The notes: generated by a model not told the origin, from the letters alone. Shown: positions 1,203-15,175, numbered from the stretch's first letter. The stretch: 20,000 nucleotides of DNA from an uncultured virus (IMG/VR IMGVR_UViG_3300028569_000010) (IMGVR_UViG_3300028569_000010); one strand, 5' to 3'. Numbers and translations: made by a program.

Positions 1203-1643
1203 ATGAAACCAAAGACATTAAAAGAACAGATATTAGAACTTAAAAACCAAGGTTATTCCTACAATGAAATTAAAGAAAAGCTTGGATGTTCAAAAGCCAC
1301 TATATCTTATCACGTAGGCATAGGGCAGAAAGATAAGACCAAACAAAGAACTAGGGATGGTAGAACTAAAGTAAGAAAATACTTACAAGAATATAAAGCT
1401 GGTAAGAAATGCGCGGATTGCGGAGAAAACTATCCATACTGGATTTTAGAGTTTGATCATTTAAGAGATAAAAAATTTACAATAGGACAATTTAGTTCTA
1501 AGACAGTAGATCTAGTAGTAATTAAAGAAGAAATAGAAAAATGCGATATAGTATGCTCTAACTGTCATAGAAATAGAACTTTTAATAGATTGGTTAAAGA
1601 CGGGGGTGGGGTATCTTGGGAACATTGTGACTATCCAGAATAA
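1203..1643 (+). CDS. Free-standing HNH endonuclease with N-terminal HTH
   Basis: AGGAG RBS; HTH-like GYSYNEIKEKLGCSKATISYH; CADC..LEFDH..CSNCH Zn/HNH core. Confidence 0.85.
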   Translation: MKPKTLKEQILELKNQGYSYNEIKEKLGCSKATISYHVGIGQKDKTKQRTRDGRTKVRKYLQEYKAGKKCADCGENYPYWILEFDHLRDKKFTIGQFSSKTVDLVVIKEEIEKCDIVCSNCHRNRTFNRLVKDGGGVSWEHCDYPE

Positions 1644-2879: not shown

Positions 2880-3200
2880 ATGCCATATATTAAAAAAGAT
2901 AATCGTACTGTTTTAGATAGATATATTAATCACTTATCTGAAGCAATTAGTGATAAACATACTAATGAAGATATTATGAATATTATGGGAGATCTAAACT
3001 ATAGTATTACTAGACTTTGTGCTAGTGTTATAAGTGAAAATATAACTTACTCTAAGATAGGTATGATTACTGGCGTCCTTGAAAATGTAAAACAAGAACT
3101 CTATCGTAGAATAGCAGTTCCTTACGAAGAAAATAAAGTGATTGAAAATGGCGACGTTGAAGAATTTACAAAAATAGATTTCTGGAAACACACTACTTGA
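2880..3200 (+). CDS. Conserved hypothetical protein (DUF6899-like)
   Basis: MPYIK..GDLNYSITRL..GVLENVKQELYRR..PYE..K..NGD pattern; family name recalled, not searched. Confidence 0.7.
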   Translation: MPYIKKDNRTVLDRYINHLSEAISDKHTNEDIMNIMGDLNYSITRLCASVISENITYSKIGMITGVLENVKQELYRRIAVPYEENKVIENGDVEEFTKIDFWKHTT

Positions 3201-3225
3201 CAAACGCCGATAGACGAGTTAGAAT
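3197..3225 (+). promoter_or_regulatory. Sigma70-like promoter with CGAT spacer element
   Basis: TTGACA-aacgcCGATagacgagt-TAGAAT (17 nt). Confidence 0.75.
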
Positions 3226-3654: not shown

Positions 3655-4409
3655 TTCGCCAAAGAATTAACTACTGGTCAACTTCTAAGGTCGCGGATTT
3701 TATTCGCGGCGAGGATAAGCCTCATGCTTTGGGCTGGCATGAATGGGATGAATGGCACAAAGATATTAAACAGAGAAAGCCTGCACGATATTGGTTGAGT
3801 GAAAAAGGACTAAATATTCTACAGAATACCATATATTACCCATACGATCTTTATCATACAATAGAGATTTATGTGCGAAATCGTTGGATAGATAAAACTC
3901 ATGTATTGAATACCGGATTAAAACCGGGACAGTATTATGAATTTGACTACAAAGTTTTGCACGGTTTATTCTATGAATTGACAGATTATGTAGAAGTAGA
4001 ATTGGCCGGGATGCAAACTTGGCATAATGAAAATAAATACAATTTTGTTAAAGGAAGATGTGCGGAAGCAGGATTAGATTATTTGGAGTGGGCAAGTTCT
4101 TTAACCTATGATGACGCTTTTTTAAGAAAAAATGATAAGCGTAAGGGTAAACTTACGCCACAAGCAATATCAGCACAAAAAGTGCGTGAACTTTATGAAT
4201 GGTGGAAAATAACAAGACCCAATAGACCCGAACCTAGCGTAGTTGCTAAATATAACGAGATAGTTGGAGATACTGTACTTGATGGTAAACTTTCTGCTAA
4301 GAAACGGGCTTGTCTTACCAAAATCAACAAGATCGAAGATGGATACGAAAAAGAGGATACTGACAAACTTATCGAACTTATTAAGATAAGAAGGGAAATT
4401 TGGACATGA
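3651..4409 (+). CDS. Hypothetical protein, paralog of 10958-11707
   Basis: Shared blocks such as NYW..SK.ADFIRG and TGLKPG.YYEFD...LHGLF.EL.DYVEVE. Confidence 0.85.
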   Translation: MIRQRINYWSTSKVADFIRGEDKPHALGWHEWDEWHKDIKQRKPARYWLSEKGLNILQNTIYYPYDLYHTIEIYVRNRWIDKTHVLNTGLKPGQYYEFDYKVLHGLFYELTDYVEVELAGMQTWHNENKYNFVKGRCAEAGLDYLEWASSLTYDDAFLRKNDKRKGKLTPQAISAQKVRELYEWWKITRPNRPEPSVVAKYNEIVGDTVLDGKLSAKKRACLTKINKIEDGYEKEDTDKLIELIKIRREIWT

Positions 4410-4630
4410 CAAAGGTTGTTTTTGAATTTAATTTACCAGATGATCAACATGATTATGAAGTAATGAATCAGTCTAGTAAGATGCAGTCTTTTTTATGGGA
4501 TTTTAGTCAACAACTACGATCATGGTATAAATATCATCACGATTTCAAAGACGCCGATGATGCACTAGACAAGATAAGAGATGAGTTTTATCGACTACTT
4601 AATGAACATAATGTGAATATAGACCTATGA
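4406..4630 (+). CDS. Hypothetical protein
   Basis: ATGA overlaps at both ends; FEFNLPDDQ N-terminus typical of small phage proteins. Confidence 0.75.
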   Translation: MTKVVFEFNLPDDQHDYEVMNQSSKMQSFLWDFSQQLRSWYKYHHDFKDADDALDKIRDEFYRLLNEHNVNIDL

Positions 4631-4998
4631 AAGCAAATCTAGAACACGACTTATTTCCCTCTGAATATATCAGAAACAAATGTAAAAATAGTGAAATTTA
4701 TTCACAAAATTTATACGCTTGTCTTTGTAATAATAGGTTTTTTAAGAATAACGAAGAATGGAGTTGTTCTTGGAGAATGGCGGGAGGAATAGTAGCAGAC
4801 TTAAGAGATAAGGGAGAAGAATATACCGATTGGTATTGCAGTGGGATACTTGGAGATAAAGTTGATGGATATGTTGCCGAAAGCGTTGTAACATCAGAAA
4901 TTGCTAATGATCTTTTAAATCTAGGATGGACTATTAAGCCTTATGAACCAAGATTAGAACCGGGAGTATATAGAAATGAGTGGCGAATTACCAGATAG
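4627..4998 (+). CDS. Hypothetical protein, paralog of 11698-12060
   Basis: Shared YSQNLYA.LCNNRF, W.CSWR.AGGIVAD, DWYCSG, PYEPRLEPGVYRNEW. Confidence 0.85.
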   Translation: MKANLEHDLFPSEYIRNKCKNSEIYSQNLYACLCNNRFFKNNEEWSCSWRMAGGIVADLRDKGEEYTDWYCSGILGDKVDGYVAESVVTSEIANDLLNLGWTIKPYEPRLEPGVYRNEWRITR

Positions 4999-5095
4999 TA
5001 AAATACCGTGGTGGGACAATCATTATGAAGATGTTTATAGTGAAGAAGTAGAAGATGGCTATCCTTATGATACGGGAACCAAAGTGCAGGAATGA
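4976..5095 (+). CDS. 39-aa acidic microprotein (not in ORF track)
   Basis: MSGELPDSKIPWWDNHYEDVYSEEVEDGYPYDTGTKVQE; paralog at 12050-12172 differs mostly synonymously. Confidence 0.8.
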   Translation: MSGELPDSKIPWWDNHYEDVYSEEVEDGYPYDTGTKVQE

Positions 5096-5379
5096 AAACT
5101 TATAAAGAAGTTAAACGCAAAGTTGAGGATAAGGTATACTGCGATCTTTGTGGACAAAGTTGTACGCTAGATCAGTTTGGTAGTGAATATGCTACACTAG
5201 AGGCTATATGGGGATATGGCTCAAAAAAAGATGGAGAGAAGTTTGATATACAAATTTGCGAAAACTGTTTTAATGAAACTTTAAACTGGATGAAAGAAAA
5301 AAGAAGAATAAATTTAGGCTCGTTCTCATACCCTCATAATAAAGACCCGTTGAATGGAGAAAACTATAACATAATATGA
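5092..5379 (+). CDS. Zinc-finger-like hypothetical protein
   Basis: CDLC ... CENC pairs; ATGA coupling. Confidence 0.75.
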   Translation: MKTYKEVKRKVEDKVYCDLCGQSCTLDQFGSEYATLEAIWGYGSKKDGEKFDIQICENCFNETLNWMKEKRRINLGSFSYPHNKDPLNGENYNII

Positions 5380-5615
5380 GAAAACGAAAGAAAGAGAAAA
5401 GGGCTAAAGGTATCAAGGGTTATTTGCTTTATAGTCCAGTAACCCAAAATCATTTTTTTAGAGTACACAATAAGAAAGATCCGACTAAATTTAAGGATTA
5501 TAAAATAACCGCAGAAGATATAGAGATCAAACTATTGTCTAATTTTAATGCTCTAATAGAACTTGATACTGGTGAAAAAATACTAGATTATACTAGAGAA
5601 GTATTGGGGCACTAA
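5376..5615 (+). CDS. Hypothetical protein
   Basis: ORF coupled at both ends. Confidence 0.7.
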   Translation: MRKRKKEKRAKGIKGYLLYSPVTQNHFFRVHNKKDPTKFKDYKITAEDIEIKLLSNFNALIELDTGEKILDYTREVLGH

Positions 5616-6238
5616 TGAATAATCATATAACTCTCATTGGCGATGTTCACGGTAAATATGATCGTTACCATAAAATCATTCGTCAAACTGAGCGGCACCC
5701 ATACTCTGTACAAGTTGGGGATTTTGGCTTTGACTATACGACATTAAAGAATGTTGATCCGAAAAATCATGTATTTATTGGTGGGAATCATGACCAATAT
5801 GATATTATAAATGATGTCCCCAATTATCTTGGAGACTATGGATATGTGAATAATTTTAATGGTATTGACTTCTTCTTCTTTCGCGGTGCTTACAGTATTG
5901 ATAGACAATATAGAACAATAGGCATCGACTGGTGGGAGCAGGAGCAACTAAAGATGGAAGACTTTATTAAGGCAAGAGAACTTTATAGAGATATTAAGCC
6001 AAATATTATGATAACTCATGATTGTCCACAAGAGATTGTTCTACAAATGCTAAGGCCGGGAGATAGAGTATTTGAAAATCATACCTCTTGGGCTTTACAG
6101 GAGTTGTTTAATATTCATCAACCAAAGATGTGGTTTTTTGGTCACTGGCATAAGTCACGACAAATTCAGCATGGAAACACAAAGTTTATTTGTTTGAATG
6201 AGTTGGAAACTTATACTTTGACTAAAGATTCCTATTGA
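5615..6238 (+). CDS. Calcineurin-like metallophosphoesterase
   Basis: Motifs GDVHG, GDFG, GNHD, THDCP, GHWH. Confidence 0.9.
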   Translation: MNNHITLIGDVHGKYDRYHKIIRQTERHPYSVQVGDFGFDYTTLKNVDPKNHVFIGGNHDQYDIINDVPNYLGDYGYVNNFNGIDFFFFRGAYSIDRQYRTIGIDWWEQEQLKMEDFIKARELYRDIKPNIMITHDCPQEIVLQMLRPGDRVFENHTSWALQELFNIHQPKMWFFGHWHKSRQIQHGNTKFICLNELETYTLTKDSY

Positions 6239-6262
6239 CAAACGTCGATAGTGTGGTAACAT
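6235..6262 (+). promoter_or_regulatory. Sigma70-like promoter with CGAT spacer element
   Basis: TTGACA-aacgtCGATagtgtgg-TAACAT (16 nt). Confidence 0.7.
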
Positions 6263-6271
6263 AACAATATT

Positions 6272-6365
6272 GATGCCGAAAGGTTGGGATCGCGGGTAAT
6301 CCCATAATCAATTTCCGTAGACTTTTTAGCGTGGTTTTGTGTAAGATTGAAAACCACGATTCATC
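6272..6365 (+). ncRNA. Candidate structured RNA / leader
   Basis: GCC-GAAA-GGT hairpin; TGGGAT/ATCCCA hairpin; 9-bp CGTGGTTTT/AAAACCACG hairpin, directly after a promoter. Confidence 0.45.
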
Positions 6366-6385
6366 TTATAAAGAGATAATTATTT

Positions 6386-6667
6386 ATGGACTGCCCTAAT
6401 TGCTTAACTCCATGGAAATGTAATGGCCCCCATCTTGAGAAAAGCGATTTTAACTACTATAAAAGCAGTGAAGGTTATTGGGTATTCAAGCCTTTATTAC
6501 AAAAATATGTTTTTATTCCTTTTGAAAAAGAGTATGATGAAAATCAGCTCTTAGATATAAGCAATACATTGAAAATATTGAATAAAGAAAAGTATAAGAG
6601 TCAAAATAAAAGATTAGAAGTTTTACAAAAACTAAGTGACTTAGATCAGGAATTAGGATTAGTCTAA
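6386..6667 (+). CDS. Hypothetical protein
   Basis: 93 aa; CPNC...CNGPH putative metal-binding N-terminus. Confidence 0.7.
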   Translation: MDCPNCLTPWKCNGPHLEKSDFNYYKSSEGYWVFKPLLQKYVFIPFEKEYDENQLLDISNTLKILNKEKYKSQNKRLEVLQKLSDLDQELGLV

Positions 6668-6861
6668 TGAAAATGGGATCAGTGGTTGTATTTGAACCAA
6701 ATAACTTTAATCCAGAATTTTGGAAACAATTTCCAGAAGAGGATAAGATTAAATATTATGGGCCTTTGGGCTATGGTTCAAACAAGAAAAAGTTTTTCGT
6801 ATTTTTAACAGAAATTTATGCTGCTCCCCGATGGGAGTTCTTACCAGTACGGTTTTTATAG
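6667..6861 (+). CDS. Hypothetical protein
   Basis: TAATG coupling, 64 aa. Confidence 0.6.
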   Translation: MKMGSVVVFEPNNFNPEFWKQFPEEDKIKYYGPLGYGSNKKKFFVFLTEIYAAPRWEFLPVRFL

Positions 6862-6912
6862 GATACAAATCAAATCTTCCTAAGAAAAACCCTAAAGACA
6901 AAGAAGAAAAAT

Positions 6913-7011
6913 ATGTCGTGGCAAGCAAGCCTGCTTAAAATTATGGAAATTTGTTGCGGTATATTATTAGCACGATTAATATTATTTTTTATAAACAAGA
7001 TCAAGAACTGA
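6913..7011 (+). CDS. Possible 32-aa hydrophobic peptide (not in ORF track)
   Basis: MSWQASLLKIMEICCGILLARLILFFINKIKN; fills the gap; no clear RBS. Confidence 0.4.
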   Translation: MSWQASLLKIMEICCGILLARLILFFINKIKN

Positions 7012-7021
7012 ATTAACAGTC

Positions 7022-7130
7022 ACCTTTGGGTTGATCGCCAAGGGTAGCGTCCTGAGCCTCTGGTTCATCTATTGTAGGGATTTCCCTCTCGATGTTCAAT
7101 GCTCAATAATGGGGGCGCTTTCAATACGCC
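7022..7130 (+). ncRNA. Candidate structured RNA
   Basis: GC-enriched intergenic tract with ACCTTTGG/CCAAGGGT hairpin and nested stems AGCGTCC/GGGCGCT, TGAGC/GCTCA, CATC/GATG, AGGG/CCCT. Confidence 0.5.
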
Positions 7131-7139
7131 GGAGAAATT

Positions 7140-7364
7140 ATGAATAGTTTATTTAACTTGTTGTTGGCAGCATCACTGGCTTTTCCGACATCTATTATTA
7201 TATCTTTTCTATATTATATGGGATGTGCTATTGTAGTAAACTGCTTTAAGTATAATTATGGTAATGAAAATTATTGGATATTTTCTCACGCTGTTGTAAT
7301 ATTGGTAATTAGTTGGATAATTAGTTTTGGACTTTACATTATATTCTTAGAAAGAGAACTATGA
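7140..7364 (+). CDS. Small membrane protein (2 predicted TM segments)
   Basis: GGAG RBS; two long hydrophobic stretches. Confidence 0.7.
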   Translation: MNSLFNLLLAASLAFPTSIIISFLYYMGCAIVVNCFKYNYGNENYWIFSHAVVILVISWIISFGLYIIFLEREL

Positions 7365-7657
7365 AAGGCCCACTAATCTACTACGAAATTAAGGATATAT
7401 ATGGTACTGATTTATCTAGTACCAAATTGGCTACACAATTAGGCAAAGATATAATGGGCGATATTGATCTAGGATTTAATGTGGAACTAGACTTTAAAGA
7501 TGTTCGTAGTATAACTAACGGATGGGCTAGAAATGTGGTAGGAACTATTGCTAAAAAACATGGCGAAGATTTTGTAAAAAGCCACATACTAATTAGTAAC
7601 ATGACTAAAGGTGTTCGCAAAACTATGTTGGAAGGCATTGGAGATATATTGGTATGA
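7361..7657 (+). CDS. STAS-like domain protein (DUF4325), copy 1
   Basis: GTDLSS..VELDFKDVRSITNGWARNVVG..ILISNM pattern. Confidence 0.75.
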   Translation: MKGPLIYYEIKDIYGTDLSSTKLATQLGKDIMGDIDLGFNVELDFKDVRSITNGWARNVVGTIAKKHGEDFVKSHILISNMTKGVRKTMLEGIGDILV

Positions 7658-7887
7658 CATTTGAAGAATTTCAAACCAAAGTAGACGATACGTTTATGGC
7701 TAATCAACCCCCAAAAATTCTTGCTACTAATCGGTGGAGATATGGTCAAACAATAATGAATGTTTTACACGATGTTTGGCATCAAAAATATCTGGAAATT
7801 AGCGATTCAGATATGGATTGTTTTTATACTAATCGTAATGTTGATATGGTATTAAATAAACTGGAGAAAGAATGGAAGTTAAAGTAA
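7654..7887 (+). CDS. Hypothetical protein, paralog of 9126-9353
   Basis: WRYGQT.MNVL..DCFY motif shared with copy 2. Confidence 0.8.
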   Translation: MTFEEFQTKVDDTFMANQPPKILATNRWRYGQTIMNVLHDVWHQKYLEISDSDMDCFYTNRNVDMVLNKLEKEWKLK

Positions 7888-8090
7888 AACAAGAATACCA
7901 AACTTTAGATAAGAACAACTTTGATCAAGTGTGTTGTCTTGTGGATCGCATAGTAGAAGATATTTGTATTACATCAGAACTAGAAAAAAATCCATTTTGG
8001 CACGAAGAATTAAAAATATCCATGATAAAAGACTATATGATAGACCTTATTAATCCAGACCTTTTAGATTTTAACAAGGATATTGCATGA
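7872..8090 (+). CDS. Hypothetical protein
   Basis: GGAG upstream; overlaps neighbours. Confidence 0.65.
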   Translation: MEVKVKQEYQTLDKNNFDQVCCLVDRIVEDICITSELEKNPFWHEELKISMIKDYMIDLINPDLLDFNKDIA

Positions 8091-8245
8091 ACATATCAAT
8101 TTGGTATAGAAACGGTGAATATCACTGGGAATTTTATGATGGGCCAGATGGCATCGACCATTTTACAGGTTTTTCCTCTAGTCTGGGAGAGGCTTTTGAA
8201 TCTATAATCAAACAACAACTAATGAATTCCATGCAATATCAATAA
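8087..8245 (+). CDS. 52-aa hypothetical protein (not in ORF track)
   Basis: ATGA coupling, AAGGA RBS; MNISIWYRNGEYHWEFYDGPDGIDHFTG... Confidence 0.65.
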   Translation: MNISIWYRNGEYHWEFYDGPDGIDHFTGFSSSLGEAFESIIKQQLMNSMQYQ

Positions 8246-8258
8246 ACTCAAGCCTGTC

Positions 8259-8286
8259 TTGACAAACGCCGATAACATGGTATAAA
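8259..8286 (+). promoter_or_regulatory. Sigma70-like promoter with CGAT spacer element
   Basis: TTGACA-aacgcCGATaacatgg-TATAAA (16 nt); CTTGACAAACGCCGATA identical to the 3197 promoter. Confidence 0.75.
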
Positions 8287-8345
8287 TAGTCAGTATTGAC
8301 ACTTTAAGGCTAGTTTCTTGCAATAAAAGGACACTTTTGACACTT

Positions 8346-8516
8346 ATGAACTACTATATTGAAAAACACGATATGGAAATGATCTTGGATGCTCTGGAGA
8401 ATCTTGTGGCGGATATGAAACACGCTAAAGATAATGGTCATTATAGACTTGTCGATTATCCTTATTCTATTGATGATGTTAATGGTCTTTTAAAGAGTTT
8501 TACAGAGAATAACTAA
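8346..8516 (+). CDS. 56-aa hypothetical protein (not in ORF track)
   Basis: MNYYIEKHDMEMILDALENLVADMK...; TAATG coupling to next ORF. Confidence 0.65.
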   Translation: MNYYIEKHDMEMILDALENLVADMKHAKDNGHYRLVDYPYSIDDVNGLLKSFTENN

Positions 8517-8722
8517 TGACCGAAAACCCACTACAACTAGCAACTAAAAATTGGATAGAAGCAGTCCAGAAGTATTATGAGAATACTCGTAGTAATGAAT
8601 TAACCCAAATACATATGAGGGGGCATTTTAGCGGTTGGAGCGAAAGAGAGATAGTGAATTTAGCGAACAAATTGGCTAAAAATGAAAACGATTATCCTTT
8701 GTGGAGAGACTTGGAAAAGTAA
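8516..8722 (+). CDS. Hypothetical protein
   Basis: 68 aa coupled ORF. Confidence 0.65.
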   Translation: MTENPLQLATKNWIEAVQKYYENTRSNELTQIHMRGHFSGWSEREIVNLANKLAKNENDYPLWRDLEK

Positions 8723-8832
8723 CAATTTTTCAAGATAGTTGTATCCCTACCAAGGGAGGATTGCTTAATATTAGTGCAGAAAAAATTTCAACATGACACA
8801 AGAAGAATTTTAATATAAAAAGAAGAGGAACT

Positions 8833-9129
8833 ATGAAAGGCCCACTAATCTATTACGAAATCAAACATATGTATGGTACTGATTTAAGCAGCACCAAAAA
8901 AGCTAGTGAATTACGACAAAGCATCCTAGAAGAAATAGGTCTAGGATTTAATGTAGAGATTGATTTTAAAGGTGTTCGTTCAGTTACTAATGGGTGGGCT
9001 AGAAATCTAATTGGTGTTATAGCTAAAGAACAAGGATCGGACTTTGTTAAGAGTCATATACTCCTTATCAATATGAGTAAGAATATTAGAACAACATTAC
9101 TTGAGGGTGTGGAGGATATATTAGTATGA
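8833..9129 (+). CDS. STAS-like domain protein (DUF4325), copy 2
   Basis: Same length (98 aa) and motifs as 7361-7657; GAGG RBS. Confidence 0.75.
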   Translation: MKGPLIYYEIKHMYGTDLSSTKKASELRQSILEEIGLGFNVEIDFKGVRSVTNGWARNLIGVIAKEQGSDFVKSHILLINMSKNIRTTLLEGVEDILV

Positions 9130-9353
9130 AGTTTGTAGAATTTCTATATAAAGTTGATGAGACTTTTATGAGCAATCAACCTCCAAAGGTTTCTGCCGCT
9201 AATCAGTGGAGATATGGTCAAACAGTAATGAATGTTCTTTGGGATATTTGGCCCGAGAAACACGACGAAATTAAAGACAGCGATTTTAACTGTTTTTATA
9301 CTAATCGTAATGTTCCTATGGTTCTAAATAAATTAGAGAAAGAATGGCGATGA
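9126..9353 (+). CDS. Hypothetical protein, paralog of 7654-7887
   Basis: NQPPK..WRYGQT..CFYTNRNV.MVLNKLEKEW shared. Confidence 0.8.
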   Translation: MKFVEFLYKVDETFMSNQPPKVSAANQWRYGQTVMNVLWDIWPEKHDEIKDSDFNCFYTNRNVPMVLNKLEKEWR

Positions 9354-9616
9354 ACAGAGATATAGATTCTGATAAAGATTTTAGCATGAGCGTGGATGAA
9401 TACTTAGCAACTTACAAACCCGGCCCGTTCATTCCTTATGCCGTCTACAACGCTCACAGAGACTCTATAACGGTCTATTTTAAAAAAGAGAGAGACTACA
9501 CACAGCCATTAAACGATGCCTTAGAACTGCATTTATCGCAAGAAACAAATGAGATAGTGGGAGCGACTATTTTCAATATCAAGAAACTTTGTGACAAACA
9601 AAATGAAACTAACTAA
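9344..9616 (+). CDS. DUF2283-like protein
   Basis: YNAHRDSITVYF...LELHLSQETNEIVGATIFN resembles the DUF2283 pattern. Confidence 0.55.
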   Translation: MAMNRDIDSDKDFSMSVDEYLATYKPGPFIPYAVYNAHRDSITVYFKKERDYTQPLNDALELHLSQETNEIVGATIFNIKKLCDKQNETN

Positions 9617-9755
9617 TCAAGACTTAGATATACTACGAGAACTTTTAGAAGATAAGATAGATCAAATAGATCGTGGGCCAGAAAATGAAGTTGATAAACA
9701 AATGCCGGTACACCTCAATCTTCTCAAAAAATTAGACACGATGTATTTTTCATGA
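9603..9755 (+). CDS. 50-aa hypothetical protein (not in ORF track)
   Basis: MKLTNQDLDILRELLEDKIDQI...; fills gap and ends in ATGA coupling. Confidence 0.65.
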   Translation: MKLTNQDLDILRELLEDKIDQIDRGPENEVDKQMPVHLNLLKKLDTMYFS

Positions 9756-10312
9756 TATACTTTATTGCAGATCCTCATTTTGGACATCATAAAATAATTC
9801 AATATTGTAATCGTCCATTTGATAATGTTCACATAATGGATCAGGTTATATTCGATAATATTAACGAAGTTGTTGGGCCAGATGATACTCTGTATATTCT
9901 TGGAGACTTTTGTTTTAGAGGAAAGAAGCCACTTGAGTACAGAATAAGAATAGTTTGTCAAGATATTCATTTAATTTTGGGGAATCACGACAAAAGAACT
10001 GATTTTTATCCCAGTGATCTTGTTACAGATATGAACGGGTTTTCTTCTGTTCAAGAGGTAAAAGAAATAATATATTGTAACCAAAGAATATATCTAAGTC
10101 ATTATCCTCACAGAAGTTGGCCCGCTAGTCATAAGGGTAGTTTTATGCTATACGGTCATGTGCATTCTAATATAGATCATGAAGATAGGGTATCTTCTAA
10201 AAAAACACTAGATGTTGGTGTTGATAACTGTAAAAATTATGGTAAACCTTTTGGTCAACCATTTTCTTTTAAAGAGATACAGAGTATAATGAGTAAGAGA
10301 GGTTTACAGTGA
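9752..10312 (+). CDS. Calcineurin-like metallophosphoesterase
   Basis: Motifs ADPHFGH, LGDF, GNHD, HYP, GHVH, DVGVD. Confidence 0.9.
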   Translation: MIYFIADPHFGHHKIIQYCNRPFDNVHIMDQVIFDNINEVVGPDDTLYILGDFCFRGKKPLEYRIRIVCQDIHLILGNHDKRTDFYPSDLVTDMNGFSSVQEVKEIIYCNQRIYLSHYPHRSWPASHKGSFMLYGHVHSNIDHEDRVSSKKTLDVGVDNCKNYGKPFGQPFSFKEIQSIMSKRGLQ

Positions 10313-10965
10313 GTAATTATCTAAATTTTGATATACCTATATTTACTTGTTATTTAGATTCATCTTTCCTTTATAATAAACCGGCTAGTGTAAATGCTAA
10401 ACGAATCCCTGTAGAAGTATTTTCTTACACAAGTATACCACAAAGATGTGGTTTATTTTCTATTATGACTGAATATGGCAGTCAACACGCTAGAGTTCCT
10501 TTACATTATTTAAGGACGAATGATTCTGGAGGAACAAATTACCCATTAGATTGGATTCAACTATGGGATAGTATGAGCTATTATGGTAGCATTAATATTA
10601 ACTCGTACACAAAGAATAGAGCAGCTAACATAATATTAAAAAACAAGAAACAAGAAAAAGTAAAATATCTGTTCACTATAGATTGGTGTTTTGGCCCACA
10701 GTATCAATTTAATTATGGAGAAATGGCTGCTGGACATAAGTGCGGCCATTTCTTTGAAGGTAATGGTCAGTATTTTATGCAGCCTAATAATAGAATATTA
10801 TGGATGGATGGCGGAAGTTGGATAGCAAAAAAGTTTGACAAAAAACCAGATTGGAAAATTTTTAATCAAGAATTTAGTTGCGAAAATACTGGAAGTAGAT
10901 GGGTTAGCGAATCAGAAGAAGAAGAATATTTCTATTCATTTAAAGAAACAGATAATAATGCTTAA
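10309..10965 (+). CDS. Hypothetical phage protein
   Basis: 218 aa, GTG start; QLWD, YLFTIDW, HKCGH, QPNNR motifs. Confidence 0.8.
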   Translation: MSNYLNFDIPIFTCYLDSSFLYNKPASVNAKRIPVEVFSYTSIPQRCGLFSIMTEYGSQHARVPLHYLRTNDSGGTNYPLDWIQLWDSMSYYGSININSYTKNRAANIILKNKKQEKVKYLFTIDWCFGPQYQFNYGEMAAGHKCGHFFEGNGQYFMQPNNRILWMDGGSWIAKKFDKKPDWKIFNQEFSCENTGSRWVSESEEEEYFYSFKETDNNA

Positions 10966-11707
10966 AAATCGTTTTAATTACTGGACTTGTAGCAAGTTTG
11001 CAGATTTTATTCGTGGAGTAGAAAAACCATTTGCTCTGGAATGGGGCGAATGGGATTTATGGAAAGAGAAACAAAAAAAAGAAAGACCTATCAGATTTTG
11101 GTTGAGTGACACTCTACTAAAGTACATACAAGATATAGTATACTTTCCATATGACGTATATAGTAACTTGAGACACTACATACAAAATAGGTGGATTGAT
11201 AAAAGGCACTACTTAAAAACTGGATTAAAACCTGGACATTATTATGAATTTGATGAGAGAATTTTGCACGGTCTTTTTAATGAATTGGTTGACTATGTAG
11301 AAGTCGAATGCGCCCACTTAAGTTTCTTCGACAAAGATAAAAAGTACAAAGTGAAAAATGGTCGCTGTATAGAAGCAGCATATGATTATTTTGAGTGGTC
11401 TAATAATCTTAAAGATGATGATGGTGAACTTTCTCGACAAGCAATACAGTCTAGAGAATTACAGGAATTGTACGAGTGGTGGAAATTAAAGAGGCCACTC
11501 AGAAAAGATCCAGCAGAATTGAGTGGATGGAAAGATGATTGCTCAATAAATGAGGATGACTTATTCAATAATGACATACCAGAAGACAAAAGAAAACAAA
11601 TAAATATTGTTCTAAATAAGCTTGATTCGATAGAAGAATCTCAGTATGACGAGGATACTAATATGCTAGTACGCTTGATTAAGTTAAGGAAACATTTATG
11701 GATATAA
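10958..11707 (+). CDS. Hypothetical protein, paralog of 3651-4409
   Basis: Alignment to the paralog places the start at ATG 10958 (MLKNRFNYW). Confidence 0.85.
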   Translation: MLKNRFNYWTCSKFADFIRGVEKPFALEWGEWDLWKEKQKKERPIRFWLSDTLLKYIQDIVYFPYDVYSNLRHYIQNRWIDKRHYLKTGLKPGHYYEFDERILHGLFNELVDYVEVECAHLSFFDKDKKYKVKNGRCIEAAYDYFEWSNNLKDDDGELSRQAIQSRELQELYEWWKLKRPLRKDPAELSGWKDDCSINEDDLFNNDIPEDKRKQINIVLNKLDSIEESQYDEDTNMLVRLIKLRKHLWI

Positions 11708-12060
11708 AGAATAACCTAGAATATCATTTGATATCAAGCGATGATATACTAAACAAAGCTAGAAATAGTAATGTATATAGTCAAAATTTATATGCCGCAC
11801 TTTGCAATAACCGATTCTTTTATGAAGATAAAGGGTGGAATTGTTCTTGGAGATACGCTGGAGGCATTGTCGCTGATATTCTACAGCGTGGAGATTATAT
11901 TGATTGGTATTGCAGTGGAATGCTAGGAGATAAAATTCCTGGTTATGTTCCAGAGGGAGAAGTGACGGATGAAATTAGACTAGATTTAATAAAGTTGGGT
12001 TGGATTGTCTTACCTTATGAACCAAGATTGGAGCCTGGGGTATATAGAAATGAGTGGTGA
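11698..12060 (+). CDS. Hypothetical protein, paralog of 4627-4998
   Basis: Shared motifs including identical C-terminal PYEPRLEPGVYRNEW. Confidence 0.85.
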   Translation: MDIKNNLEYHLISSDDILNKARNSNVYSQNLYAALCNNRFFYEDKGWNCSWRYAGGIVADILQRGDYIDWYCSGMLGDKIPGYVPEGEVTDEIRLDLIKLGWIVLPYEPRLEPGVYRNEW

Positions 12061-12172
12061 GAATCTTCCAGACAGTAAAATTCCTTGGTGGGATAATGAA
12101 TATGAGGGTGTATATAGCGAAGATGATGAAGATGGATACCCATATGATGTTGGCACAAAAGTACAAGAATGA
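12050..12172 (+). CDS. 40-aa acidic microprotein (not in ORF track)
   Basis: MSGENLPDSKIPWWDNEYEGVYSEDDEDGYPYDVGTKVQE; paralog of 4976-5095. Confidence 0.8.
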   Translation: MSGENLPDSKIPWWDNEYEGVYSEDDEDGYPYDVGTKVQE

Positions 12173-12186
12173 CTAAAGTACACACC

Positions 12187-12214
12187 TTGACAAAGACGAT
12201 ATATGAGCTATAAT
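12187..12214 (+). promoter_or_regulatory. Sigma70-like promoter with CGAT spacer element
   Basis: TTGACA-aagaCGATatatgagc-TATAAT (16 nt). Confidence 0.8.
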
Positions 12215-13124: not shown

Positions 13125-13408
13125 GCCCCTATGGTGAAATTGGCAAACACAACGGACTTGAAGATAAAATTTGAGTGCATGAAAGGAAACTTTTGATGTA
13201 GAACCTGTCAAATTCGGTGAAGGCTTAACTGCTAATACCGAGCCAAGCCCAGTAATGGGAAGGTGTAGAGACTTGACGGCAGGAACCTAAAACGCAAGTT
13301 ATGGTTAAGATAAAGTCCAGACCACAAACAGAAATGGTAACGAAAGTTATAGTGGTAAGAAAATCCGTTGCCCGAAAGGGCTTGTCGGTTCAAGTCCGAC
13401 TAGGGGTA
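13125..13408 (+). tRNA. tRNA-Leu(TAA) split by a group I intron (exons 13125-13159 and 13360-13408)
   Basis: Joined exons give acceptor GCCCCTA/TAGGGGT, A73, ACGGA-CTT^AAAA-TCCGT, variable arm GCCC-GAAA-GGGC, T-arm GTCGG-TTCAAGT-CCGAC. Confidence 0.92.
13160..13359 (+). mobile_element. Group I self-splicing intron (IC3-like), 200 nt, no ORF
   Basis: Exon ends in U, intron ends in G; P1 ACTT/GAGT with U.G pair; P AAATTCGGTGAA, Q AATACCGAG, R GTGTAGAGACTTGACGG, S AAGATAAAGTCC; P3 CTGTCA/TGACGG; P7 GACT/AGTC. Confidence 0.92.
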
Positions 13409-13861
13409 TTTTCGATTTTTTGATCTATAATTATCAGTTAGAGCGTGGCAGTTAGGACATAGTAAAGTTAAATTAGAAAGGTTATTGTTAAGATTATTTC
13501 CATCTATATGATGCAATTCAAGAGGAATTTTGGTATCTAACCAAGTTACTTTATTACACTTACAGCACTTATGGTCAAATACTTTTTCCTCTAATAATCT
13601 TCTTTTAAGTTTCCAACTTGTAATAGTCTGTTTATTCGATAGATAATCATCTAATGATCTTTTATGTCCAATTTTTTTACCTTTATTCCATCCCTGTAAT
13701 GTAAAATGAGAGATATCAATATTGTATTCTTTGATTTTCTTTTTAAGACAGGTATAGTTTCCACCAGCTTCTTTTAGTCCAAGTTTATTTAAACATTGAC
13801 GGTAACTATAACTATCACAACAAATTTCTTTAAGTAATTCTTTATTATATTGAATTCTCAT
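13400..13861 (-). CDS. Free-standing HNH endonuclease
   Basis: GAGG RBS; CCKC..LELHHIDGN..NN..NL..LCPNCH; only convincing minus-strand gene. Confidence 0.9.
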   Translation of the reverse strand: MRIQYNKELLKEICCDSYSYRQCLNKLGLKEAGGNYTCLKKKIKEYNIDISHFTLQGWNKGKKIGHKRSLDDYLSNKQTITSWKLKRRLLEEKVFDHKCCKCNKVTWLDTKIPLELHHIDGNNLNNNLSNLTLLCPNCHALTDNYRSKNRKYP

Positions 13862-14050: not shown

Positions 14051-14398
14051 ATGATAAAAAATAGTTTAGCCAATGTATTGTTAATATCTGCACTAATATC
14101 TATCGTCTCTTTATTTTGTTTTGCTGGGGATACATCAAATCAAAAAGTATTAATTATCTTTTCAGCTGATTGGTGTGCTTACTGCCAAAAAGTTAAAGAC
14201 GATATAAACCATGATCCAGAAATTTCAGAACTTATAAAGGATTATGAAGTTATAATAGTAGATTTTGATAGAGATAAAGAATTAGTAGAAGGGTATGGAG
14301 TTAAGTCTCTACCCACAATCATTAAAAAATATCAAGGTAAGACATTTACCAAGGTAGGATATAAAAATAAAATGGATTTGAAAAACTTTCTTAAATAG
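14051..14398 (+). CDS. Thioredoxin-like protein with N-terminal signal/anchor
   Basis: AAGGAG RBS; FSADWCAYC active site; YGVKSLPT cis-Pro loop; hydrophobic N-terminus. Confidence 0.88.
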   Translation: MIKNSLANVLLISALISIVSLFCFAGDTSNQKVLIIFSADWCAYCQKVKDDINHDPEISELIKDYEVIIVDFDRDKELVEGYGVKSLPTIIKKYQGKTFTKVGYKNKMDLKNFLK

Positions 14399-14764: not shown

Positions 14765-15175
14765 ATGTTTAGATTTATAGACAATTTTGGTAGATCATCT
14801 TCTTGGAATCAAGTAAGAAATGATTATATAAAAAATAATCCTAAATGTGCAGCTTGTGGAAAAATTAAAAACTTAGAAGTTCATCACATAATTCCATACA
14901 AAATAGACAAAACTAAAGAATTAGACACAGACAATCTAATTACCCTATGTAGAGATCATTGCCATTTTGTTTTTGGTCACTTTATGAATTGGAAAAGTTA
15001 TAACCCAAAAGTAATAGAAGATTCTGCACAATACTTAGCCAAAATAAAACAAAGATCATATCTAGAAGAATTTCAATCACAAGCGGTTGAGGCATCATAT
15101 GATAAAAGCAATTTTTTTTACAATTTTCTTTTTTGTATTGACAGCATCATTAAGTGCTGGTACAACAGATCCTAA
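14765..15175 (+). CDS. HNH endonuclease
   Basis: CAACG..LEVHHIIP..NLITLCRDHCH. Confidence 0.85.
   Translation: MFRFIDNFGRSSSWNQVRNDYIKNNPKCAACGKIKNLEVHHIIPYKIDKTKELDTDNLITLCRDHCHFVFGHFMNWKSYNPKVIEDSAQYLAKIKQRSYLEEFQSQAVEASYDKSNFFYNFLFCIDSIIKCWYNRS

Follow-up and report, generated by a model that had tools for sequence, protein, structure and literature searches.

Two copies of a widespread acidic phage microprotein in an uncultured virus: selection, independence and possible mode of action

The DNA analysed here, referred to as the window, is a stretch of 20,000 nucleotides (nt) from the uncultured virus IMGVR_UViG_3300028569_000010, and it carries two copies of a gene, the microgene, for an acidic microprotein of 39 or 40 residues. 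On the evidence of its sequence in many phages, this microprotein is almost certainly the product of a real, separately translated gene with its own start codon, and codon comparisons across its family demonstrate strong purifying selection on the protein-coding microgene. The two copies are old paralogues, each standing within a diverged module of three genes (encoding a protein of ~250 residues, one of ~120 residues, and the microprotein). An overall reading in which they are old paralogues of a widespread phage microprotein, that is, of an autonomous, moron-like accessory peptide which would be made early and would act as a mimic, is a serious possibility that stops a little short of probable.

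The microgene family and its independence

Both open reading frames (ORFs) lie where the initial annotation had placed them (Table 1), and its hand count of 34 shared residues, 17 synonymous differences, five replacements and one codon indel is reproduced exactly, codon by codon, with 90 of 117 nucleotides identical. In BLASTP the copies are 85% identical (34 identities in 40 columns, one gap, E 1e-22). At 31 of the 34 positions with a shared residue a synonymous alternative exists; as 17 of these 31 codons are different, silent sites are about saturated, and the proportion of non-synonymous differences (pN) is 0.09; the other two sense frames of the paired DNA contain stops, or have a non-synonymous rate (dN) above the synonymous rate (dS). 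No third copy was found in the window by tblastn. Each copy is nearer to its counterpart in other phages than to its partner in the window, the first being 92-97% identical to copies in four loci (L010-L012 and L020) and the second 92% identical to the copy of locus L047. The gene had been described as hidden and duplicated. It is indeed missing from the first ORF track, which applied a length cut-off (both copies appear at 30 residues), but gene callers elsewhere do call it; the public protein collection includes the second copy as a 51-residue protein (P0003) started at an upstream ATG (12017), the equivalent of which is closed by a stop in the first copy. As to duplication, there are two copies, with the nuance that they are old paralogues, each closer to genes of other phages.

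The family extends well beyond the window. Loci were retrieved from the IMG/VR collection by alignment of both window peptides, and 75 copies were examined: the two of the window, 72 in 71 IMG/VR viral loci, and one on a contig of a metagenome-assembled genome (MAG). The family further comprises 49 protein clusters of 39-68 residues, and a profile search of 1.84 billion proteins yielded 22 representatives at 50% identity; the listed members are all named 'hypothetical protein' and their modal length is 39. Only one of 185,579 species genomes has the microgene, on a 6.6-kb contig in a Bacteroidetes MAG. A second phage with two copies is represented by locus L013 (2501-2617 and 2966-3073, 350 nt apart), both of the H-type defined in Table 1. 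The conserved part of the microprotein is a C-terminal core of 35 residues with the landmarks LPD, PWWDN, GYPYD and GTKVQE; more distant members end one residue beyond GYPYD and have no GTKVQE, so that the minimal unit extends from LPD to GYPYD.

The core, counted as 35 codons from LPD to the shared stop, is intact in 73 of the 75 copies (57 distinct DNAs, 48 distinct proteins). Across the 57 core DNAs, the guanine-plus-cytosine (GC) content of third codon positions spans 0.09 to 0.94, and every one of the six Leu codons and four Pro codons is represented where the core invariably opens with Leu and Pro. The median dN/dS is 0.14 (630 pairs with an informative proportion of synonymous differences, pS), and pN exceeds pS in a single one of 1596 pairs of distinct sequences. 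An in-frame ATG is located 3-14 codons (mode 4) 5' of LPD in 53 of 55 distinct contexts, and the window ATGs at 4976 and 12050 match this pattern; that of copy 1 lies four codons 5' of LPD, with GGAG 9 nt upstream of it. One further context starts at TTG preceded by GGGGAGGA. The earlier proposal of a real gene under purifying selection is strongly supported, and now applies to a large family; the observation named at the outset as one that would refute it, stops or frameshifts at homologous loci, was looked for, and 73 of the 75 copies proved intact.

Several points weigh against so simple a picture. Many of the 71 IMG/VR loci come from near-identical phages and hence are not independent samples; in one context (L072) the open frame offers no canonical start codon; only 24 of 55 contexts show a Shine-Dalgarno-like 4-mer ahead of the start; and 54 of 57 cores are also free of stops in the antisense frame in codon register, as expected from Asp, Glu and Tyr codons. 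The only two copies with a frameshift, in the near-identical contigs L079 and L080, carry a 1-nt deletion. In the clade to which these belong (L075, L077, L078 and L079/L080, at about 2500-2850), a lipoprotein-like ORF begins within the last 35 nt of the microgene in a different frame, and the deletion joins the front of the microgene to this downstream ORF. The AT-rich relatives L010-L029 and L081 have no Shine-Dalgarno-like motif before the microgene ATG. The weak Shine-Dalgarno signal, together with the contig binned as Bacteroidetes, gives a weak hint of hosts that do not rely on Shine-Dalgarno-led initiation.

The genes upstream of the microgene in the window belong to two families, p252 (~250 residues) and up120 (~120 residues), and the three genes were searched for in whole genomes with positive controls, all of which were positive. 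The complete 200-kb genome G011, which has terminal repeats and contains L013, encodes two microgenes and neither up120 nor p252, and the complete 65-kb genome G001 (GC 0.61) likewise has the microgene with both other genes absent. Conversely, the complete genome G007 (229 kb) and the 91% complete G006 encode up120 and p252 and have no microgene; G012-G014 have all three genes where tested. G012, G007 and G006 possess p252 together with up120, and G011 and G001 possess neither, a perfect co-tracking in the five genomes tested. The p252 and up120 genes thus form a genuine, conserved pair, and the presence of the microgene varies independently of theirs. It is also absent from all of the first nine up120 loci, and in L006 and L007 the homologue of the zinc-ribbon-like gene that follows copy 1 in the window comes straight after the 120-residue gene, the microgene being missing there. 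Contigs rich in GC (0.60-0.69) place the microgene in other surroundings: flanked by a replication initiator and RusA; behind an exonuclease and a dNMP phosphatase; immediately ahead of an HNH gene and the small terminase; or with the large terminase on one side and the portal gene on the other. Four unrelated placements of this kind are the behaviour of a mobile accessory gene, or moron, and the microprotein is very probably autonomous of its neighbours.

The associations that do exist count against full autonomy, and form the case for a different explanation, in which the microprotein serves the p252-up120 pair as a small subunit or regulator, is made by translational coupling with the 120-residue gene and is active only with both proteins. 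Both window copies are overlapped by the 3' end of a 120-residue gene, as the initial annotation had noted; the overlaps measure 23 and 11 nt, the microgene is in relative frame +1 in each case, and the two upstream proteins are 65% identical. The link may be facultative. The whole three-gene module occurs twice in the window. Within 2.5 kb of the microgene, the distance over which neighbours were counted, the up120 family is present in 37 of the 71 loci and the p252 family in 33. Gene orders vary, microgene-p252-up120 being the commonest (p252 lies directly downstream in 17 rows), with microgene-up120 and up120-microgene also seen; up120 is the gene directly before the microgene in L032, L039, L047, L057, L068 and L117, and the one directly after it in L019, L034, L035 and L040. 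Against such a subunit stand the complete genomes with the microgene only and the genomes with the pair only, the nine up120 loci that have no microgene, the unrelated modules in which GC-rich phages place it, and the fact that p252 and up120 co-track in five genomes and the microgene does not. An obligatory role for the upstream 120-residue protein, earlier suggested as a partner for co-folding, is hence unlikely, and the subunit explanation as a whole is improbable.

Possible modes of action

Copy 2 contains 12 Asp or Glu against two Lys in its 40 residues, six Trp or Tyr, three Pro and no Cys, and copy 1 is similar. Ahead of the core stand N-terminal extensions of 3 to 14 residues, and in two diverged clusters of 120-residue proteins from Logan contigs (P0052 and P0073) a thioredoxin domain (PF00085) with a WCGPC motif carries the core at its C-terminus. 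The variable N-terminus and these natural fusions suggest that the core acts as a portable C-terminal tail module. Because the phages with the gene differ greatly in GC content and architecture, and the gene has no constant phage neighbour, its partner would not be a phage protein, but something common to many hosts.

A mechanism that would suit this distribution can be outlined as follows. The microprotein would be expressed early in a T4-like lake phage, from sigma-70-type promoters and together with other small genes of host-takeover type. The free peptide may be largely unstructured until bound, when its acidic and Pro-aromatic patches (IPWW-D and YPY-D) would fill a basic site of some highly conserved protein, which would most likely belong to the host. 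If this site normally binds nucleic acid or an acidic tail, the peptide could act as a competitive mimic, and the outcome of the competition would be host takeover or counter-defence. Argued by analogy, such a mimic or competitor mechanism is offered tentatively, as a possibility rather than a probability. The initial suggestion of a nucleic-acid mimic or anti-defence peptide fits the composition and the moron-like distribution. A bolder version, slightly more doubtful, sees the core as an ultra-conserved, horizontally mobile 'universal key' used by unrelated phages (AT-rich T4-like myoviruses and GC-rich phages of the terminase, portal and RusA type) against one target that is near-invariant across bacterial phyla. 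Candidates for a universal target are the pocket for the acidic SSB tip on replication, repair or defence proteins, or a small molecule common to all cells.

Weighing against the mimic is the fact that it rests on composition, distribution and analogy, because no homology to known mimic or defence families is found: the microprotein has no similarity to a known DNA or tail mimic, anti-defence or defence family in Pfam, PHROGs, NCBIfam, PADLOC or the PDB sequences, and no confident fold or partner could be assigned to it. No model of Pfam, PHROG, NCBIfam or PADLOC matches the microprotein, and the same libraries return nothing for up120 or p252. Against 50,697 deposited phage records, which formed the comparison set of cultured phages and were searched with the BLAST low-complexity filter on, there was no match to the microprotein or to the 123-residue protein by tblastn, nor to both regions by blastn. 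The ESM Atlas gave no usable match to the microprotein. The PDB sequence searches gave two matches, neither significant. One, over 19 residues of the metallophosphoesterase-fold protein GAP50 (E 0.07-0.1), is put down to chance, as the phosphoesterases of the window itself have no such stretch; the other, a likeness of GYPYD-GTKV to the signature (G-x-x-Y-x-x-G-x-G-V) of the helical, tandem Sel1 repeat in chain 6deh_A (E 0.46-1.3), is a single copy with a Pro inside the stretch and probably also due to chance. A mimic of the ribonucleotide-reductase tail was dropped, NrdB being encoded in one of five complete genomes with the microgene and having a C-terminus unlike the core. A precursor of PqqA type for a cofactor or a ribosomally synthesised and post-translationally modified peptide found no support among the neighbours, which differ between loci and contain neither a radical-SAM nor another maturase family. 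When four peptide copies were co-modelled with four Ca, the fold of the peptide itself was uncertain.

Another explanation, about as improbable as the subunit of the p252-up120 pair, is that the core forms a tiny beta meander of three or four strands with an aromatic face, which takes up a small cation or metabolite present in every host (e.g. a metal ion or a polyamine) and serves as a sponge or sensor, not as a protein mimic. The invariant Gly, Pro and aromatic positions alternate with turn-formers, as would suit a meander, and a small-molecule target might explain the near-identity of the peptide across phages of very different hosts. There is also a resemblance between residues 6-25 of the microprotein and the W-x-N-x-G-x-F hairpin in P0070, a protein of 2213 residues built of tandem 50-residue beta-propeller repeats of FG-GAP/VCBS type; the 20 residues around PWWDN-YE-VYS align with a probability of 79.7% in local hhalign (E 1.5e-5, for a single comparison). 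The likeness is limited to these 20 residues, however, and falls to a probability of 11% in global mode; there is no canonical metal-binding loop and no confident fold, and known phage sponges are larger and oligomeric.

The natural fusions allow a further explanation, less probable still, according to which the core is a thioredoxin-linked tail that binds or tethers thioredoxin, so that the free peptide would modulate a thioredoxin-dependent process of host or phage. In its favour, the fusions P0052 and P0073 retain the core while their thioredoxin part has diverged. These are, though, two clusters only, both from Logan contigs, with no fusion in IMG/VR or among 80 metagenome loci, and the fused-looking L112 and L117 are ordinary free-standing genes. 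The complete genomes G011, G001 and G012 bear the microgene and encode no PF00085 thioredoxin; the window's own thioredoxin-fold protein (with WCAYC and a signal-peptide-like N-terminus) is probably not cytoplasmic; and the fusions could merely mean that the tail tolerates any N-terminal carrier.

Very improbable is the notion that the ORFs are C-terminal extensions of the 120-residue protein produced by programmed +1 frameshifting. The microgene is indeed in frame +1 relative to the 120-residue gene in both window copies and in L032, L039, L047 and L068, but it has its own ATG in nearly all contexts, it occurs in complete genomes that have no up120, it lies upstream of up120 or far away from it in most loci, and in L057 the relative frame differs and a gap separates the genes. 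That ORFs as short as these are due to chance, or to conservation of a DNA or RNA element, is next to impossible, since amino acids are kept across the whole range of third-position GC and nearly all change is synonymous, and an element is ruled out because nucleotides drift while residues stay fixed.

Genomic setting of the window

The window is AT-rich (GC 0.31-0.37) and consists of an almost single-stranded array of small genes. Among them are rIIA, rIIB, thymidylate synthase, two phosphoesterases and three HNH endonucleases, a gene content that points to the early region of a large T4-like phage. No genome among the deposited phage records matches the window at the DNA level by blastn, and its rIIA is at most 37% identical to any rIIA among them. 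When contigs of four DNA runs from lakes or freshwater were compared with the window, X2 and X3 contained stretches with at least 99% likeness and X4 a 95-99% relative, with scant variation within the gene; the DNA of the window thus recurs in further runs labelled lake water metagenome.

The two modules have the orders p252-p76-up123-micro1 and p290-up120-micro2, and conservation between them rises along the module, from 45% identity for the p252 paralogues through 65% (77 of 119 residues) for the up120 paralogues to 85% for the microgene. The up123 protein is up to 70% identical to orthologues elsewhere. The stop codon of copy 1 (TGA) shares bases with the ATG of the next gene (ATGA, 5092-5095). 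Copy 2 is the final gene ahead of a promoter-like site of consensus type, and this perfect site, 15 nt 3' of the gene, would make copy 2 the end of a transcription unit. Together with the site upstream of module A, it is probably an early promoter bounding such units, as judged by match to the consensus.

Table 1. Positions of the microgene copies and of neighbouring features in the window (pLDDT, predicted local distance difference test).
Feature	Position	Strand	Remarks
Microprotein gene, copy 1	4976..5095	+	39 residues, MSGELPDSKIPWWDNHYEDVYSEEVEDGYPYDTGTKVQE; 'H-type' core with NHYED...EEVED
Microprotein gene, copy 2	12050..12172	+	40 residues, MSGENLPDSKIPWWDNEYEGVYSEDDEDGYPYDVGTKVQE; 'E-type' core with NEYEG
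up120 paralogue A (up123), 123 residues	4627..4998	+	Last 23 nt overlap copy 1; AlphaFold2 model with pLDDT 87.6, no PDB fold match
up120 paralogue B, 120 residues	11698..12060	+	Shares its final 11 nt with copy 2; 80% identity with its orthologue in L047
p252 paralogue A, 252 residues	3651..4409	+	Fixed partner gene of the up120 family; helical model, pLDDT 73.5
p252 paralogue B, 249 residues	10958..11707	+	ORF opens at TTG 10835; family alignment and ATG 10958 favour the shorter start
p76, 76-residue gene between p252 and up123 in module A	4400..4630	+	Order p252-p76-up120-micro recurs in L117
Cys-rich, zinc-ribbon-like gene, 95 residues, directly 3' of copy 1	5092..5379	+	
Sigma-70-type promoter-like site, 12/12 consensus	12187..12214	+	TTGACA-16-TATAAT, 15 nt after copy 2; consensus match only
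Promoter-like site, 11/12 consensus, upstream of module A	3197..3225	+	Consensus match only

The 290-residue ORF that opens module B at its TTG is probably over-extended (10835-10957), as orthologues and the paralogue begin at the residue of the ATG at 10958, which overlaps the 3' end of a preceding ferredoxin-like gene by 8 nt. The up120 family has invariant Trp, Cys and Tyr positions and a confident model, for which Foldseek gave E values above 1 and the best VIA Z was 4.8, with no PDB counterpart; the p252 model matched generic helical bundles only (best Z 6.4). Further downstream, at 14051-14398, is encoded a thioredoxin-fold protein with a hydrophobic, signal-peptide-like N-terminus and a WCAYC motif, from its sequence likely an exported thiol-disulfide oxidoreductase, and in L034, L047 and L058 its orthologues follow the microgene at a distance of ~2 kb. 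Genes resembling HNH homing endonucleases are located at 1203-1643 (+), 13400-13861 (-) and 14765-15175 (+), the second being the sole sizeable minus-strand gene in the window.

Significance and comparison with known systems

Phage accessory genes normally evolve fast. Here, a peptide of 35 residues remains ~75-95% identical despite a drift of third-position GC from 9% to 94%, in phages of different architecture, and such conservation implies a constraint common to many hosts. As far as the literature shows, the family is unnamed and undescribed: it has hundreds of database entries, and no name, model or publication was found for it. Keyword searches yielded no account of it; none of the papers searched contained the strings PWWDN, WWDNEYEG or WWDNHYED, and the matches to GYPYD were epitope-tag constructs. 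More generally, the case illustrates how ORF-length cut-offs conceal real, strongly selected phage genes. The peptide is short enough for chemical synthesis, so that it can be used as direct bait for its partner in lysates; were the target a conserved bacterial protein, the peptide could serve as a probe or an inhibitor lead, and if the 'universal key' were true, it would represent a new class of broad-host-range peptides for host takeover or counter-defence.

The closest functional analogues may be DNA mimics such as Ocr, ArdA, Arn and gp5.9, which are small, very acidic, phage-encoded accessory proteins, expressed early, that block host DNA-handling enzymes by imitating nucleic acid. Small acidic mimics of DNA are exemplified by the inhibitor T7 gp5.9 with RecBCD (PMC9836394) and by Ocr (PMC11317158). 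The microprotein shares with this group its acidic composition and an accessory, mobile distribution. It differs in having no sequence or profile similarity to them (the best PDB match had E 0.07, and the listed chains are not mimics), in a core of 35 residues that is shorter than any of them and unusually rich in Trp, Tyr and Pro, and in its conservation among phages whose GC contents differ widely, whereas DNA mimics are not known to range beyond particular lineages.

A second comparison is with SSB-type tails. The bacterial SSB tip, D-D-D-I-P-F, is near-invariant across bacteria, and T7 gp2.5 and T4 gp32 also have acidic tails. By eye, the microprotein similarly combines an Asp/Glu run with a hydrophobic-Pro-aromatic element, and does so twice (IPWW-D and YPY-D); its core stands at the C-terminus and tolerates any N-terminal carrier, and a near-invariant tip would explain a near-invariant mimic. 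SSB-tip pockets, however, read a free alpha-carboxylate, whereas the Pro-aromatic elements of the microprotein are internal, its end being GTKVQE or one residue after GYPYD, and it has no oligonucleotide/oligosaccharide-binding (OB) fold. T4 Stp, of fewer than 50 residues, is likewise a very short early phage peptide that binds a host protein, but it lacks the acidic and aromatic character, is not known outside the T-even phages and has no sequence relation to the microprotein. Compared with the FG-GAP/VCBS proteins, whose repeat hairpin aligns with it, the microprotein is a single copy of ~35 residues, has neither tandem 50-residue repeats nor an Asp-Gly calcium loop nor the remainder of the repeat, and gives no match to the family in Pfam. 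The microprotein is thus placed among the small acidic accessory peptides of phages, where its distinctive features are its near-invariance across very different phages and a length within reach of chemical synthesis.

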